Of a DNA stretch of 20,000 nucleotides, positions 4,444 through 19,195 are shown piece by piece. The stretch's first letter is position 1, and every line of letters starts with the position of its first letter. The stretch lies in the IMG/VR virus record IMGVR_UViG_3300020037_004263; one strand, 5' to 3'. Both the position numbers and the translations under genes were made by a program. The stretch is from an uncultured virus (IMG/VR IMGVR_UViG_3300020037_004263) (Duplodnaviria; Heunggongvirae; Uroviricota; Caudoviricetes). Under the pieces are notes generated by a model. It had not been told where the DNA came from and ran no database searches. It saw nothing but the letters and a program-made list of their open reading frames with translations.

Positions 4444-6489
4444 TCAATCCTGTTTCGCGTACCTGAGCATCTCGTGACCCGCCGCAGCGAGCGGCAGGCC
4501 CAGCGACCACGGCGGATTCGTCGCCATGATGGCGCTCAGGCCCTCGGCGGTGTAGTTGTCGTTGTCGGGGGTCTCGGTGATGTTTTCATCATGCACGGGC
4601 AGCAGGATGGCGTATCCGGCCGCCTCAGCGTGCTTGGCGCCGAACTTGAAGACATCGCGAGCCGTGCCCTGAGTGGATTGCTCCCCAAACTTGCCTCCAT
4701 ATGTCTCGATCGTTTCCCATTGCCGGGTGTACTGGTTCAGGCCGTCGTAGCGTATCTGGCTGTCGCTCTTGCCGGTGCCGTCGCACCCGGGGCACATCAC
4801 TTCGGTATCCGCCGCAACGAACGTCTTGCCGGTGCCCTCGCAACGGATGCACTTCGCACCGATCCGGGCGTTCGGGTAGCTGAGGTATCGGCCCGACGGC
4901 AGCCGCAGGCGGAGCCAGGCGCCGCGCATGTCGAACCGTAGCCCGCGCACCTCGAAGGCTTCCTTGGGGAAGCGAATCGCGGCCTTGGCAGCGTCCTCCA
5001 GAGCGTACCACAGACGCACGATGTTCGGGTGAGTCTTGCGCCACGCCTTGACGATGGTGACGGCCTCTTCCTCGGCCATCACGACGCCGTAGTTAGCGCC
5101 CATTTTGGCGAAGGCTCCCGGCCCTCCCTGAAAACCTAGGGCGAGCTCAGGCACCTTACCGTATGCCTGCCGCTCGTCCTTGGTGATGTCCTCCGGCCGC
5201 TTCCGAAGGATGTTCCCGGCGGTCAGTTTATAGATGTCGTGACCCGTTCCTCGATCGAACGAGCGGAAGGCGTCGAGCTTCCAGTCCTCGCCGGCGAGCC
5301 ATGCCAGCACGCGGCCCTCGATGTTGGACAGGTCGGCGACGACCAGCTTCTTGCCTTCGTCGGCGATGAGGCAGCCGCGCACGGCGTTCGAGCACAGCTC
5401 GCTGACATTCTCGTAGAGCAGATCCTCGCAGTCCGCCTTCATGGCACGGATGGCGCGCTCGATCTCCCACGGCCTGAGCGTCGGTCTCGGCAGGTTCTGC
5501 GGCTGGAACAGACGGCCGGCGTCCCGACCCGTGCGGGAGGCCCCGCAGAACTGGATAGTGCCGCGCAGCCGGGCGTCAGACGAGGCGGCCTTGAGCAGCA
5601 CTTTGTACTTGGCCGGTGACGTCGCGGCGGCCTGCTGCCTGATCTCCAGCAGCTCGCGCACCTCGTCGGTGATGTCGTCGCGCTTGAGCGCCGCAGTGAC
5701 GGTGCCCTTGGTTAAATCCGCTGTCTCGAAGTCGTGGGCGTCGGACAGGTGGTCGAGCAGCTTCTGCCGCTGCGTCATGCTGCCGACGGCCCCACCAGTC
5801 AGGTCGGTGGACCGCTTCGCGAGTTCCTTAGACGTGCGCTCGAAAGCGCGCAGGGCAGAGCGCGCAAGGTCCAGGTCGACCTTGACGCCGCGGTCGTTGA
5901 TCTTCTGGTCAAGCAGCCACAGCTCGCGCTCCGACGGCGTGTCGTTCCAGCGGGGGATGCGCTTCAACACCTCGCGCATGGCCTCGATGTCCGAGGCGCC
6001 GTAGCTTTTGAACGCCTCCCACTCGGCCGGGTGTGTCTCGCGCGTCGCCCGGTCCAGCTTTCGATTTTTCCCGAGAGGTTTGCAGAAAAGCTGGATCAGC
6101 TTCTTGCCAGCCTTGTCCTTGGCCTTATCGACCGGGACGCCCAGAACCTCGCATAGCTTGTCCAGCCCGGCCGGCAGGCTGTGCATCAGCGCGAGCACCA
6201 TGGTGTCGGTGATCTTCTCGGTGGGGATGGTGACGCCGCAGTGGCGCAGAACGGTGCGGTCGAACGACGAGTTCTGGATAATGATCTCGTCGGCCTCGTC
6301 GATCATCCACTGCAGCTGCGGGGCGTAGCGCTCCCACTCGTGGGGGCCAGAGACGTCCTCGACATGCACCGGGCCGTCGTCCCAAGCGTGCTGCACGAGC
6401 AGCAGCTCGGCATGCTCAGCATAGGCGTGAACCCCACTTGTGATGGGCACGGTGCTGAACGCCTCAGTATCAAGGTAGAGAGCGGTCAC
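4444..6489 (-). CDS. polA: DNA polymerase family A with 3'-5' exonuclease domain
   Basis: Exo YLDTE, NSSFDR, YGASD; SRTGRDAGRLFQPQNLP; motif A DLSNIEGR; motif B RQAYGKVPELALGF; motif C VHDE; GTG 6489 overlaps upstream TGA. Confidence 0.95.
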   Translation of the reverse strand: MTALYLDTEAFSTVPITSGVHAYAEHAELLLVQHAWDDGPVHVEDVSGPHEWERYAPQLQWMIDEADEIIIQNSSFDRTVLRHCGVTIPTEKITDTMVLALMHSLPAGLDKLCEVLGVPVDKAKDKAGKKLIQLFCKPLGKNRKLDRATRETHPAEWEAFKSYGASDIEAMREVLKRIPRWNDTPSERELWLLDQKINDRGVKVDLDLARSALRAFERTSKELAKRSTDLTGGAVGSMTQRQKLLDHLSDAHDFETADLTKGTVTAALKRDDITDEVRELLEIRQQAAATSPAKYKVLLKAASSDARLRGTIQFCGASRTGRDAGRLFQPQNLPRPTLRPWEIERAIRAMKADCEDLLYENVSELCSNAVRGCLIADEGKKLVVADLSNIEGRVLAWLAGEDWKLDAFRSFDRGTGHDIYKLTAGNILRKRPEDITKDERQAYGKVPELALGFQGGPGAFAKMGANYGVVMAEEEAVTIVKAWRKTHPNIVRLWYALEDAAKAAIRFPKEAFEVRGLRFDMRGAWLRLRLPSGRYLSYPNARIGAKCIRCEGTGKTFVAADTEVMCPGCDGTGKSDSQIRYDGLNQYTRQWETIETYGGKFGEQSTQGTARDVFKFGAKHAEAAGYAILLPVHDENITETPDNDNYTAEGLSAIMATNPPWSLGLPLAAAGHEMLRYAKQD

Positions 6490-7004
6490 ACGTACTCCCA
6501 CCCGGCAACCGGCGGTGCGTAGAGATGCAGCTTGTCGCGCTTGAGCGGCCCTTTCTCCCAGCCCGCCATGACGTAGCAGTAGCCAGTGCGCCTGCGCGCG
6601 GAGACATCGACCTCGGTACGCAGGCGCTCGTCAGGCAGCTCGCCATAGCGCTCGGCCCATTTGGCGTAGGTCATCTCTGTCGCGGCGCGGATGAGATCGC
6701 TGGAGAGACCAGCGCCGAGATTCCGGAACAGCATGTTGCGCCAGACGTAGGTCGCCCTAACGTCGGTCTGAGCCGTGCGCCCGCGCGAGGCACCAGAGCC
6801 TCGGGCCATCGGCGTCTTCTGCCTGACGACTGCCCAGACGGCTTTCCCGCACGGGGTTACGAGCACGATCTCCTGCCCGACGCCCGTGAAGGTCTTCGAT
6901 CCCGGTGTGCGCCGCGAGTAGTGGGGTCCGTGCCCTTCACAGACACCGCAGCCGTCGACCACGTCAAGAGCCCGCCGATCGCTGGATGAACTGAGCAGCC
7001 ACAC
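6486..7004 (-). CDS. conserved phage protein, possible Mom-like (GNAT-fold) DNA modification enzyme
   Basis: HYSRR, FRNLGAGLSSDLIRAA, LRTEVD, TGYCYVMAGW pattern; GTG 7004 just after upstream TAG. The CDS is well supported, the function tentative. Confidence 0.55.
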   Translation of the reverse strand: MWLLSSSSDRRALDVVDGCGVCEGHGPHYSRRTPGSKTFTGVGQEIVLVTPCGKAVWAVVRQKTPMARGSGASRGRTAQTDVRATYVWRNMLFRNLGAGLSSDLIRAATEMTYAKWAERYGELPDERLRTEVDVSARRRTGYCYVMAGWEKGPLKRDKLHLYAPPVAGWEYV

Positions 7005-7006
7005 GG

Positions 7007-7246
7007 CTACAGCACGAAGTTCGGCTGGCCGTCCTTGGCTTTCCACTTGAGGTGAATCCAGCCCGGCGGAACGTAGTGCGAGATGCCATCAGCGTCGAAC
7101 AGCCGGTGACTGCCTCGTTCGCTGACGTGCAGCTGCAAAGGCGTCTTGATCCAGACGTGCCGTCCGTTTTCGAACTCGTACTCTCGCCACGCTTCGCTGG
7201 AGATATCCACGAAAACGAGATCGGTAACGTTGTTGAAGTTTGTCAT
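7007..7246 (-). CDS. hypothetical phage protein, 79 aa
   Basis: ATG 7246; DISSEAWREY, SHRLFDADGISHYVPPGWIHLKW. Confidence 0.75.
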   Translation of the reverse strand: MTNFNNVTDLVFVDISSEAWREYEFENGRHVWIKTPLQLHVSERGSHRLFDADGISHYVPPGWIHLKWKAKDGQPNFVL

Positions 7247-7253
7247 GGTTTTT

Positions 7254-7459
7254 CGCCCTATTCTTGAAGAGAACATGCCGCGAAAGCGTCAGCAACCTGG
7301 CTGCCATTTGGCGGGGATCAACCAGACCGCAGCATGCCCTCTTCAAAAATAGGGCGTTCCGACCGGCTCACATGTCAGGGGAGACAATCGCGGAGTTCAG
7401 GGAGAACCACCGGTCGGAACGCCTTCAGTCTACGCTTGAAAGTGGTCTATTTCAAGCGC
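7254..7459 (-). ncRNA. structured intergenic RNA element of three stem-loops (family unknown)
   Basis: Stems 7254-7283/7327-7356 (30 bp, 5 G-U), 7353-7367/7409-7423 (14 WC + 1 G-U), 7432-7441/7450-7459 (9 WC + 1 G-U); wobbles work only on the minus strand. Confidence 0.65.
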
Positions 7460-7467
7460 TTTCGTCG

Positions 7468-7725
7468 TCACACGTACTGCAAGCCGATGGCCCGCTCGTA
7501 CGTTTCGATCAACTCGTCGAGCGTGGTCCGCTCGTCCTTGTCCATCTTCATCCGCGCGTAGACCTTGCGCATGATCTTGGTGTCGTAGCCGAGCGCCTTG
7601 GCCTCCGCGTAGATATCCTTGATGTCGTCCGCCGCGGCCTGCTTCTCCTCGTCGCGGTTGCCGATGCGCTCGAAGAACTGCTTGAGGCGTTTATCCTCGT
7701 CGCCGTTGTGACCGATGCCCGCCAT
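7468..7725 (-). CDS. DUF2312/UPF0335 GapR-like DNA-binding protein
   Basis: GIGHN, RLKQFFERI, EEKQAAADDIKDIYAEAKALGYDTKIMRK, ELIETYERAIG. Confidence 0.9.
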   Translation of the reverse strand: MAGIGHNGDEDKRLKQFFERIGNRDEEKQAAADDIKDIYAEAKALGYDTKIMRKVYARMKMDKDERTTLDELIETYERAIGLQYV

Positions 7726-8322: not shown

Positions 8323-9579
8323 CTATTCCTCTACGTCATCAGTGGCGAGCGCACGGAACTTCTCCGCGACGTCGGTGGCCAGCGAAGGCCGGGGGTCGGT
8401 GGCCGGAGCCACGGACGGCTTGCCGTCGGCGCGGGTGACGAAGGCGTTGACCTTCTCCCAGCGCTTCGGGGTCGGCTTGAGCAGCTTCTCGGCCTTGGTC
8501 GGACTGATCAGCTTCATGTCGTACATGTCGTCGACCTTCAGCCGGAACGACTTCTTGAGCATGTCCTCGACCTGTGCCTCGTCGGTCCATGCCCGGTTCC
8601 CGGCGCGGCCGGCGACGAGCTTGAAGCCCTCGACCGGCTTGCCGTCGGCCAGCAGTCGGAAGACCTCGGCGCGGACCGCCTTGCACCATTGCTCGACCAG
8701 CTCCACCTTCGACATGGCGATGGCGAGGTAGTTGTCGCCGGTGGTCTCATCGACTTCCATCGGGGCGAAGGCTGCGAACTCCTCGACGGTCGCGGGCGAG
8801 AACACCTCGCCGGACGTGGCGAGCATCATCTCCTCGCGCAGCGCGGGACAGACCGCCTTGGCGCGACAAAATCTGCAACCCTTCGCAGAAGGCTGCAAAT
8901 AGGCCAACAGCGCTTCGTCATCGGGCGCAAACTGTCGTGCTTCATGTGTTTTAGCAGCGCAGATTTTGACCTTTTCGCCAAACTCGCGTAGCTGTGTGAC
9001 CGGGATAGTCCATTCGCTAAAGTTTCCTTTTCGCGGCTGGTCGATCGCCAGAGTGATCGTCTCGAAGTCCGCAAACACACCGTAGTGGTCGACAGCGCAC
9101 AGCCCGTAAATCTGGGTCTGTTCATCCTCCTCGGCGTCGACCTCGACGCCTTGACCGTATTTCAAATCCTTGATCTTGAGCCAGCCATCGCCGATAACCA
9201 CGACATCCGATATCGCAACTCCGTTATCTTCGCCTGTGAGATGCCCCCGCGGCATCTTCTGCTCTACAAGCAGCGTGCCGCCCTTGGCAAAAGCCCTGAC
9301 GCGCTCGCAGTAGCCTTTGACGTACTCAACCATCTCTCCCGAGACAGTGAAAGTCGAACCATCCTCGAAAGTCCAACGCTCCCCGACGTATTCGTCGAGA
9401 TGCCAGCCGTCGCGGAGGTGCCCCGCAGCTAACTCGTGGGCTAGATTACCTTCGTTCGCGTAGATAGAACTTGTGTTTGGGAACTGACTCTCCAAGACGA
9501 CGCTGCCTGGGCACGTCATCCAGCGCGCCGCGCTGGATGGCGAAAGGCGCACTGGGTGTTTACCGTTCGGTGCTGACAC
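8323..9579 (-). CDS. DUF2800 Cas4-like PD-(D/E)XK exonuclease with Fe-S cysteines
   Basis: RLSPSSAARWMTCPGS, EGNLAHELA, SD...DLKYGQG, QIY, CRFCRAKAVC, GFKLVAGR; AGGGAG RBS 7 nt before GTG 9579. Confidence 0.9.
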   Translation of the reverse strand: MSAPNGKHPVRLSPSSAARWMTCPGSVVLESQFPNTSSIYANEGNLAHELAAGHLRDGWHLDEYVGERWTFEDGSTFTVSGEMVEYVKGYCERVRAFAKGGTLLVEQKMPRGHLTGEDNGVAISDVVVIGDGWLKIKDLKYGQGVEVDAEEDEQTQIYGLCAVDHYGVFADFETITLAIDQPRKGNFSEWTIPVTQLREFGEKVKICAAKTHEARQFAPDDEALLAYLQPSAKGCRFCRAKAVCPALREEMMLATSGEVFSPATVEEFAAFAPMEVDETTGDNYLAIAMSKVELVEQWCKAVRAEVFRLLADGKPVEGFKLVAGRAGNRAWTDEAQVEDMLKKSFRLKVDDMYDMKLISPTKAEKLLKPTPKRWEKVNAFVTRADGKPSVAPATDPRPSLATDVAEKFRALATDDVEE

Positions 9580-9700
9580 GTTCAAACTCCCTGTACGCAG
9601 CCTCTCGCGCTGCGGCTGCTGATTCGGCGGTCGGAAAGCTGCCGGCGCAGGCCATCCATCTCGCTGCGCCGGAGGGTGATAGACGGGCGTGGACGCTCAT
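9560..9700 (-). pseudogene. 46-aa chimeric stub: duplicated DUF2800 N-terminus fused to an AP2-domain-like fragment
   Basis: MSVHARLSPSGAARWMACAGS followed by FPTAESAAAAREAAYREF; ATG overlaps NADAR stop; GAGGAG RBS. Confidence 0.7.
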
Positions 9701-11477: not shown

Positions 11478-11506
11478 AGCTTAAACCAACCGCTTTAGGG
11501 CGTCAA
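11478..11506 (-). promoter_or_regulatory. sigma70-type promoter for the recombination/replication gene block
   Basis: TTGACG (11506-11501), 17 nt spacer, TAAGCT (11483-11478); intergenic, upstream of a strong RBS. Confidence 0.75.
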
Positions 11507-13576: not shown

Positions 13577-14845
13577 TCATACGACTTCCAGCGCGTCGAT
13601 CGAGACCATCACGCTTTCGACGAAGCCTTTCGTGACTTCCGCGTTGACCGCATTACCGTAGCCCCGCAGAAGCCCCATTCGATTGGCAATCCCATTAGCC
13701 AGCGGGAATGAGCCGGATTCAACGGCGCGCCACGCTGGCTCTCCGTCAGGATTTCGGCACAGCAGCCAGTCTGCATCTCGCCAGAAGCCGTTAACCGGCC
13801 CCGGATCGCGAACTGCAAGTCTTTCACTGCTGCTACCGACGACACGAACCGGTTGTTCCCGGCTTGGTGCCCGTTCGCGTTCACCGGACACGTTGGTGTT
13901 TGCCACGCTACCAGCTGCACCGCCAGCGAGCAGTGCGTCACCGCCCCCGCGCCCATCTGGATGCCCCGCGCGACGCACGCTTTCTTGCGTGCCAAGTGCT
14001 GCTCCGGCGTCCCTCCCGGCTCTGCTGCTGGCGTCGGCCAAGCGCTCAGCCACGCCTGACGGCCCAGCAGGCAGTTGATCGGTACGTTCGGGCACTCCGT
14101 CCCGTCCTTGTAGTCGCGGGTGGTGGGCCACGCCGCTAGCTTCGCTACCGGGTTGAGCGCCACTGTCGCCTTGCTCCCGTCGGGCCGCTTGCCCGTCGCG
14201 CTGGCGTCCTTCGCCATCTGCGAGCCCGATGCGTTCCCGACAGTCGGAGACGGCCAGAAGGCCAGTGCTGCTGCTGCTGGCAGCCGGTCCGCGCCCTGCG
14301 ACGGACCTCCGTGCGGGCCGTCCTGCTGGCACGGTGTCGGCCAGCCATGCAAAATAGAGACGTTGACGGATGTGCGGCGCCCCGAAGCCCGCAGAGCAGA
14401 GATCGAGCGCCCCTCCGGCGTAACCCGCGCCTTCCATGTCAGCTTGTACAAGGTCGAGCCAAGCAAGTCCGTCCTTGCTCGCAACCTGCTCTCCAAGAAC
14501 GACAGGAAATCGGCGCTCCGAGATGAGATGGTAGAACGCCGGCCAAAGGTGCCGCTCGTCGTCGAACCCGCCTCGGCCGCCTGCCGCGCTGAAAGGTTGG
14601 CACGGGCAGGACCCGGTCGTGACGGGTCTGTCGTCGGGCCATCCGGCCCGGCGCAAGGCGTAGGACCAGACTCCGATTCCGGCGAAGAAATGGTGCTGAG
14701 CGTAGCCGTCGATGTCGCTTGGTCGAACGTCACGAATGTCCCTTTCGTCGACATCGCCCGGTGCGATGTGGCCTGCGTCTATCAGATTGCGTAGCCAGGC
14801 CGCGGCGAACGGATCATGCTCGTTGTAGTAGGCGCACTTCTCCAC
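13577..14845 (-). CDS. C5-cytosine DNA methyltransferase, alpha polypeptide (motifs I-VIII and X)
   Basis: FFAGIG (I), GSCPCQPFS (IV), GEQV (VI), APHIRQRL (VIII), LRGYGNAV (X); no motif IX visible in this frame. Confidence 0.9.
13609..14754 (-). CDS. nested +1-frame beta polypeptide of the C5 methyltransferase (motif IX and five WPTP modules); start uncertain
   Basis: 381 codons without a stop inside the alpha gene; [16 protein letters not shown] (motif IX-like); repeats WPTP/WPSP/WPTT/WPTP/WQTP. Confidence 0.8.
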
Positions 14846-14869: not shown

Positions 14870-15109
14870 CTAGTTGTCGATCGGCTCGCCGACCAGCGCC
14901 CTGAGCGACGGCTTGACCAGCAAAGCGCGGTCTACTCCGTAAAGTTCTTCAACCTCGAGCGCGCGCTGCGGAGGCAGCCACCCCCTCCGGACCCACTCGC
15001 CGACGGCCTGGACCGAGACGCCGAGATGCCGGGCGAAAGCGGAGCGTGCGCGCAGCGGGTTGCCGCAGGCTTCGCCCGCCTTCAGGATCGCTTGCTCGAT
15101 GCCGGTCAT
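14870..15109 (-). CDS. Cro/YdaS-like HTH transcriptional regulator
   Basis: RSAFARHLGVSVQAVGEWVRRGWLPPQRALEVE; immediately upstream of replication genes. Confidence 0.85.
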   Translation of the reverse strand: MTGIEQAILKAGEACGNPLRARSAFARHLGVSVQAVGEWVRRGWLPPQRALEVEELYGVDRALLVKPSLRALVGEPIDN

Positions 15110-18978: not shown

Positions 18979-19195
18979 TCACTTCGCGTTCCTCCTGCTG
19001 TCCATCTTGAGTATCGCCGCCTCGCCGAGCTTCCGGTTGTTCACCCGCGCGGCGTAGTGCTCGATAACCTGCATCGACTGGCCCGTGATCGAACCGACTT
19101 CGGCGATCGTGCAGCCCGCCAGCAGCAAGGCGTTGACCGCGTTCTTGCGCAGGCCGTGCGGCACGGTCTCAAAGCCGAGCCCGGCCGTGAAGGTG
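18979..19195 (-). pseudogene. int: tyrosine integrase C-terminal remnant
   Basis: VPHGLRKNAV (HxxR), ITGQS, IEHYA (catalytic Tyr); in-frame stop upstream at 19243-19245, so about 70 aa remain. Confidence 0.85.

Follow-up and report, generated by a model that had tools for sequence, protein, structure and literature searches.

The c4 RNA of phages P1 and P7 (Rfam C4, RF01695) is presented, in the sections of PMC12197685 devoted to it, as an operon-leader phage RNA with two exposed segments complementary to ribosome-site regions, features shared by the leader RNA described here; the same sections portray phage sRNAs mostly as cis-antisense, lysogeny or host-directed RNAs. Whereas c4 and the P4 CI RNA act on their own operon only, the present RNA would have many distant targets. 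The CI RNA is presumably likewise leader-encoded, with two exposed segments complementary to ribosome-site regions. Both c4 and CI are processed by RNase P, in contrast to the RNase III-like stem found here.

In enterobacteria, the seed of the sRNA GcvB is rich in G and U and targets C/A-rich elements that immediately precede the Shine-Dalgarno (SD) sequences of many mRNAs, as summarized in the part of PMC3879156 that concerns these targets. Our leader similarly sets a G/U seed against C/A-rich enhancers of many mRNAs, but unlike the free-standing host RNA it is phage-encoded, embedded in an mRNA leader and directed at the phage's own genes, and no sequence relation is claimed. GcvB is bound by Hfq.

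A one-directional tag before many gene starts, the start-associated sequence (SAS), occurs in cluster K mycobacteriophages, and the part of PMC3203893 that treats it proposes binding to an unknown RNA or protein. Here sequence and host differ, and the matching RNA was identified in the same genome. Among the entries of Fremin et al. 2023 (PMC10690425) that concern DNA_pol_A are unnamed candidates upstream of this gene (DNAVirus_1115, 4643, 561 and others), structured elements of 80–90 nt within 25 nt of the phage PolA gene, of which 1115 is flagged as palindromic. These entries name marine or gut sources and other predicted hosts and describe no antisense function; compared by description, they possibly already include our stem. 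Apart from these entries, the literature searched, including the sections consulted of PMC5737381 and PMC11053796, held no account of the leader RNA.

Layout of the leader in a phage replication module

The window, i.e., the whole 20,000-nt stretch analyzed (IMG/VR record IMGVR_UViG_3300020037_004263), covers a phage replication module in the order primase/helicase, exonuclease (DUF2800), SSB, GapR-like gene and leader element, followed by a 79-aa ORF, a 186-aa ORF, PolA, VRR-NUC and a helicase. This arrangement of genes recurs in Caulobacter phage RW, and because of the GapR-like gene the host is probably alphaproteobacterial. BLASTN of the region against cultured phages gave only GapR among the matches listed. 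The leader of ∼170 nt consists of a host-type promoter, the 5′ hairpin P1, the second helix P2 and a ribosome site (Table 1).

Table 1. Features of the leader and its surroundings in the window.
Feature	Position	Strand	Remarks
GapR-like gene (PF10073)	7468..7725	-	constant upstream neighbour of the leader
Palindrome over −35 box and spacer	7432..7459	.	roughly retained in close relative L238
Sigma70-type promoter, TTGAAA-17-TAGACT	7427..7455	-	from promoter scan; overlaps GapR stop in relatives
P1, 5′-terminal hairpin	7353..7423	-	begins at predicted start site
P2, 5′ arm	7327..7356	-	first 4 nt contested by P1; includes anti-SD part
P3, inner hairpin	7297..7325	-	C-rich loop is seed A region, ∼7319-7310
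Seed B, GUUGCUGAC	7288..7296	-	largely unpaired; complement of early-leader tag in relatives
P2, 3′ arm	7254..7283	-	ends in weak SD-like AUAGGGCG
Predicted RNase III dyad	7265..7345	-	best of nine registers, 6/9 consensus pairs
79-aa gene	7007..7246	-	function not assigned; inserted behind leader
DNA polymerase A	4444..6501	-	usual first gene behind leader
Best candidate own target, exonuclease start	9570..9595	-	not above chance

Recomputation of P2 returned exactly the coordinates of the original prediction, with 30 gapless pairs, 25 of them Watson-Crick and five (7263, 7272, 7273, 7279 and 7283) G-U on the minus strand, which corresponds to C-A on the plus strand. Pairing stops at the four nucleotides that follow inward (7284-7287). 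P2 is the longest gapless stem on either strand of the window (30 bp; next 16), and its minus-strand fold of −60.3 kcal/mol (z −7.6) was matched by 0 of 200 shuffles, the plus-strand fold being −48.9 kcal/mol. Equally borne out were the 7 nt between the end of the 3′ arm and ATG 7246 and the four nucleotides (7356-7353) that P2 has in common with the upstream hairpin 7423-7353. The SD-like stretch within P2 has an unpaired probability of 0–0.19. Five of five wobbles on one strand amount by themselves to about 1 in 16, and the case for a strand bias rests on the homologues described below.

P1 of the window is a three-way structure with two C-rich loops (7407-7395 and 7386-7373). This branched form is lineage-specific: it is also present in L238, and among the 35 loci returned by a pattern search of viral contigs for the two P1 loops the structure itself was found only in the same phage.

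The palindrome over the −35 box may be operator-like. Two further TTG-17-TA promoters (15173-15145 and 11506-11478, minus strand) carry similar TTGAA..TTTCAAG-like palindromes, and a third site (4449-4420, minus strand) has the same kind of palindrome without a −10 box; these are probably operators of a Cro-like protein encoded at 14870-15109. P2 itself holds TTGAAG/CTTCAA, possibly by chance.

A connection of the leader to the 79-aa gene was considered and rejected: the leader is absent from the loci of the gene's homologues elsewhere. The gene belongs to a wide phage family (711 representatives). Several of the homologues (loci L091-L139) lie directly behind a tRNA-like sequence. Just downstream of the gene in the window, inside the 186-aa ORF, is a 15-bp stem with four G-U pairs (6878-6948, minus strand).

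Conservation of the leader among related phages

GapR and SSB-alignment searches collected 190 SSB loci, of which 113 distinct loci were kept once rows that were truncated, short, duplicated or devoid of GapR had been removed; manual placement was used for two boundaries. P2 is present behind the GapR-like gene in 108 of the 113, the loci without it being, by inspection, L154, L157, L160, L237 and L300. Among the 108, the next gene is PolA in 60, an inserted gene in 44 and not known in 4. Judged from this gene order, the 79-aa gene is a passenger of a PolA-operon leader. The RNase III site or translational switch that had been proposed for the genes from 7246 through PolA is partly supported; that reading had overlooked the promoter directly upstream, the membership in a family of PolA-operon leaders and the loop, which in related phages is an antisense element.

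The TTG-17-TA promoter is found in 68 of 84 distinct homologues, compared to 0 of 344 coding controls, and in all 84 the P1 region folds at −12 kcal/mol or below. P1 and P2 overlap by at least 1 nt in 68 of the 84, and 69 of 84 copies have an SD-like sequence within the P2 3′ arm; both the competition between the two stems and the burial of the ribosome-binding region, belonging to PolA or to a gene inserted ahead of it, are kept in relatives. As to the proposed covariation across related phages, 37 diverse copies show double changes at all 23 core pairs, with 95.5% of cells paired, a level that 0 of 500 shuffles reach; slid registers give 45–60% pairing, a lenient control since the structure was derived from those 37 sequences. 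In 56 distinct stems, leaving aside the central mismatch, the non-standard pairs are G-U in 44 cases, C-A/A-C in 5 and other in 43; like the other family counts, these do not represent independent events, the sequences being related by descent. With this strand bias retained in relatives, the claim of selection at the RNA level is upheld.

With the window left out of its construction, a covariance model detects this copy on the minus strand at 26.2 bits (E 4.4e-6) and scores the plus strand at 15.6 bits, where unrelated hairpins reach 10–16 bits. Among 71 control loci it gave only two weak matches, both in phage RW (22.2 and 15.4 bits), which has the promoter, P1 and a reduced second stem without seed B, and in which no significant leader matches were found. 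The window copy is a divergent member of the leader family with the loop seed kept: it occupies the family position from the GapR-like gene to the PolA operon behind a TTG-17-TA promoter, shows P1 overlapping an SD-covering P2 within the family length of 23–34 bp, and carries the unpaired seed B at 7296-7288, but is paired at the central 1x1 mismatch of P2, which is unpaired in 103 of the 108 loci.

Rfam gave no match for the window or for 14 related loci, and the leader RNA is real, conserved and uncatalogued. Membership in C4 was rejected: the RF01695 model had no match in the window, nor at E up to 1 in the 14 related loci; no icd, ant or kil gene but PolA or small inserts lie downstream of the leader; and a search of 30 related virus records, 18 of which have a completeness of 90% or more, found the integrase family in none. 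Prophage immunity was likewise rejected on this last result.

The element is very probably a functional leader RNA. That P2 is instead a DNA cruciform, a single-strand origin or a chance structure is very improbable, even if G-T wobbles would stabilize single-stranded DNA hairpins as well and the element lies in a replication module: most copies extend from a conserved promoter start to the SD, and the loop complement is located in mRNA leaders.

The double hairpins of BPP-1 (L147:2055-2150) and JessA (L153:2123-2175), a hairpin plus long stem directly after SSB and before the next ribosome site, were rejected as members, being alike in layout but different in letters and reaching only 15–16 bits. 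Upstream of the exonuclease module, L159 has a second P2-like stem (605-697; 26 bits) that shares the central motif and may be a second processing site. In L168 (3074-3215) a deletion cuts GapR and removes the promoter and most of P1, and spares P2 entirely.

A predicted RNase III site in P2

In the parts of PMC6212723 used here, and likewise of PMC1540722, the E. coli in vivo rules for RNase III comprise 24 positions with strong central pairs, weak flanks and A-U at D/D′, a scheme that the family pattern fits; the host enzyme is not that of E. coli, and its rules may differ. The P2 core consists of 12 + 1 + 11 positions, the upper stem in homologues being mostly 11 or 14 bp and the lower mostly 12–13. 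Its pairs are arranged with two-fold symmetry about two central G-C pairs (54/56 and 56/56 stems, counts partly built in because a GG-x-G pattern served to choose the dyad anchor). D′ is U-A in 53/56 and D is A-U or U-A in 43/56, while the position beside the center is unpaired in 54/56; the central mismatch is C-A in 38/56, i.e., G-U on the other strand, and U-U in 14. As in intramolecular E. coli sites, there is a duplex of ∼24 positions with two central G-C pairs, weak flanks and A-U/U-A at D/D′, a pattern which we take to be shared by the early RNase III sites of T7. Unlike those of E. coli, D is G-C in 12/56 stems, which is inhibitory for the E. coli enzyme, and the enclosed loop holds an antisense seed. 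A further E. coli RNase III consensus fitted the window in another register and did not fit the homologues, and was dropped.

In the window, predicted cuts between 7343 and 7342 and between 7266 and 7265 (register within ∼2 nt either way) would release 7342-7266, an RNA of 77 nt. When such a cut is modelled, the SD-covering duplex is held by only −7.5 kcal/mol instead of −45.7 kcal/mol (family means), and in the window by −5.5 kcal/mol at the best register. For the RNase III site of the original prediction the family pair pattern is favorable and the cleavage itself modelled; overall, we lean towards a cut in P2.

Alternatively, the leader might act uncut, with the 5′ UTR or a prematurely ended P1-P2 RNA pairing in trans with early leaders and with P2 opened by pairing or by a phage protein (SSB, GapR or PolA) instead of RNase III. 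None of the antisense evidence presented below depends on cleavage, P1 together with the pyrimidine run after it is similar to a weak terminator, and D is G-C in the 12 stems mentioned; yet a stem of about −45 kcal/mol would demand a strong opener, the conserved length and dyad symmetry suit a dimeric dsRNA enzyme, and a terminator scan of the window leader found none. We consider an uncut leader unlikely, and processing by RNase III remains our preferred reading.

Complementarity of the loop to early-gene leaders

The seed A region of relatives corresponds to an anti-SD/spacer sequence, and a match of at least 7 nt between the loop and the sequence immediately following P2 is present in 42 of 86 copies (2% in shuffles), the complementarity to the own spacer being below 7 nt in the other 44. 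A pseudoknot in cis with this adjacent spacer was rejected: across an intact stem of 24–30 bp the distance would be too great, and the match is therefore read as pairing in trans or after a cut. A second loop match, immediately following a promoter, is located ∼1.2 kb upstream of the exonuclease.

In 16 of 17 other genomes the early genes carry, between promoter and SD, a tag complementary to the phage's own loop, with 3–11 same-strand leader matches per genome; G008, whose loop has 5 nt, has none. Altogether, the 17 genomes contain 87 matches on the same strand and 10 on the opposite one, where shuffled loops would lead one to expect ∼8; single genomes are not each beyond shuffles, as several have shuffle maxima equal to or above the observed count. 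Perfect loop-leader runs extend over 16–19 nt, the SD being part of them. Seed and tag vary in concert: the tags ATCAGCAAC, GTCAGCAAC, ATCAACAAC and ACCAACAAC accompany matching loops at 46 of 60 sites, and the remaining 14 tags differ from their own loop, three of them by a C-A mismatch. Promoter-led tags were found in 14 of 14 genomes with seed B (60 sites) and in 0 of 5 sequences that lack this seed. For 46 of 65 leaders, the own SD-spacer is a better partner of seed A than foreign ones are, at a mean of −14.1 versus −11.9 kcal/mol for sites that are not independent; G001 is reversed, its own spacers being paired worse. Taken from these complementarities, antisense pairing in the family is probable.

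The early tag could also be a DNA element, either an operator or an initially transcribed promoter sequence, with the loop a mere inverted copy and P2 a translational or processing stem acting only in cis. Such an element would fit the position of 57 of 65 tagged leaders at about +1 of a TTG promoter-like box, a protein site evolving in concert would yield covariation as well, and the window retains the seed without any tag. However, the complementarity spans SD and spacer in phage-specific letters, the longest runs being 19 nt in G002 and 16 nt in G001 and G004; G005, G017 and G026 have SD-spacer seeds in place of, or besides, seed B; eight tagged leaders have no promoter; in 42 of 86 copies there is, in addition, a match to the spacer following the SD; and the inverted copy, seed B, is mostly unpaired in the RNA loop (73 of 74 copies). 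This explanation is quite unlikely, and we continue with antisense RNA as the favored one.

Four RNA libraries, sought with the relative L207, contained only contigs of relatives, for which DNA is a possible source and in which no ends were readable.

A model for the leader

Host RNA polymerase would start the transcript at P1, and P2 would then fold over the SD and keep the first gene off, a repression suggested by the computed structure and its conservation. RNase III would most likely cut P2 at the two central G-C pairs beside the conserved mismatch, whereupon the short lower duplex, contested by P1, would fall apart and PolA could be translated. The upper part would be released as a hairpin RNA of 60–80 nt, whose loop could pair with the 5′-terminal tag, rich in C and A, and the SD of early mRNAs, and often with the PolA spacer. 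Complementarity and covariation are observed, and the pairing would presumably damp early genes. In the window phage the gate in cis would be intact and the antisense seed apparently orphaned after replacement of the early region.

The chances of this proposal as a whole, in which a cut frees PolA and releases an antisense RNA in phages with the Exo-SSB-GapR-PolA arrangement, appear to us about evenly balanced. Only tentatively do we extend it to an RNA-only lytic timing switch, where one RNase III cut starts the replication operon and frees an RNA that silences multiple early mRNAs; seed and shared 5′ tags would then co-evolve as phage-specific codes.

With the opposite sign, the RNA might activate its targets, or early transcripts pairing with the loop might trigger P2 processing and so time PolA. 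The same complementarity would serve here, many early 5′ ends facing one loop would suit a sensor, and PolA requires an on-switch. Against this, SDs and C/A-rich enhancers lie within the paired stretches, a placement that results in repression in the case of GcvB (PMC3879156, in its part on such targets), and the window copy keeps the stem without trigger sites; activation or sensing is improbable, and repression of early genes stays the preferred direction.

As a candidate for early shut-off the family is concrete: the RNA is named, its cut sites are predicted, and the pairs of seed and target are specific to each phage. To our knowledge, early-gene shut-off in lytic phages without their own RNA polymerase is poorly known. 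The leader family also suggests a possible role for repeated start-associated tags in other phages, and its seed variants would be natural orthogonal riboregulators.

The window copy retains a seed without own targets

In the window phage (G000 plus the second contig G006, ∼48 kb; record 63% complete), 0 own leaders match the window loop; with G-U pairs allowed there is one match, versus 4.3 in shuffles. The same loop matches eight leaders of G001 and seven of G021. Only two other promoter-led leaders were found in the window phage, and nothing homologous to the stretch left of the Cro-like gene is present in 18 related genomes. The best candidate target (Table 1) combines 9 bp with seed B, one of them G-U, and 7 bp with a P1 loop; this exonuclease start, the methylase start and the leader at 11506 were rejected as own targets, not being above shuffles. 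The simplest reading of these sequences is that the seed was orphaned by replacement of the early region, or that its targets lie in the missing part of the genome. Action in trans of the window copy is doubtful.

Just before the full exonuclease gene, and behind an inserted NADAR gene, a short ORF (9560-9700, minus strand) repeats the exonuclease N-terminus (PHROG 69); L238 has neither the duplication nor NADAR at that site. A 61-aa ORF (18979-19164, minus strand), followed by an AT-rich stretch, has no Pfam or PHROG match and, by its motif, resembles the C-terminal end of a tyrosine integrase. The DNA methyltransferase at 13577-14845 is apparently split into overlapping minus-strand frames (13577-14845 and 13609-14754). 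Outside the window, G000:C1:1-11158 carries lambda-like terminase, portal and protease genes without homology to the 18 relatives; it is absent from G006, has an 85-bp inverted repeat at 1-85 and 6953-7037, and is possibly a chimera or mosaic.
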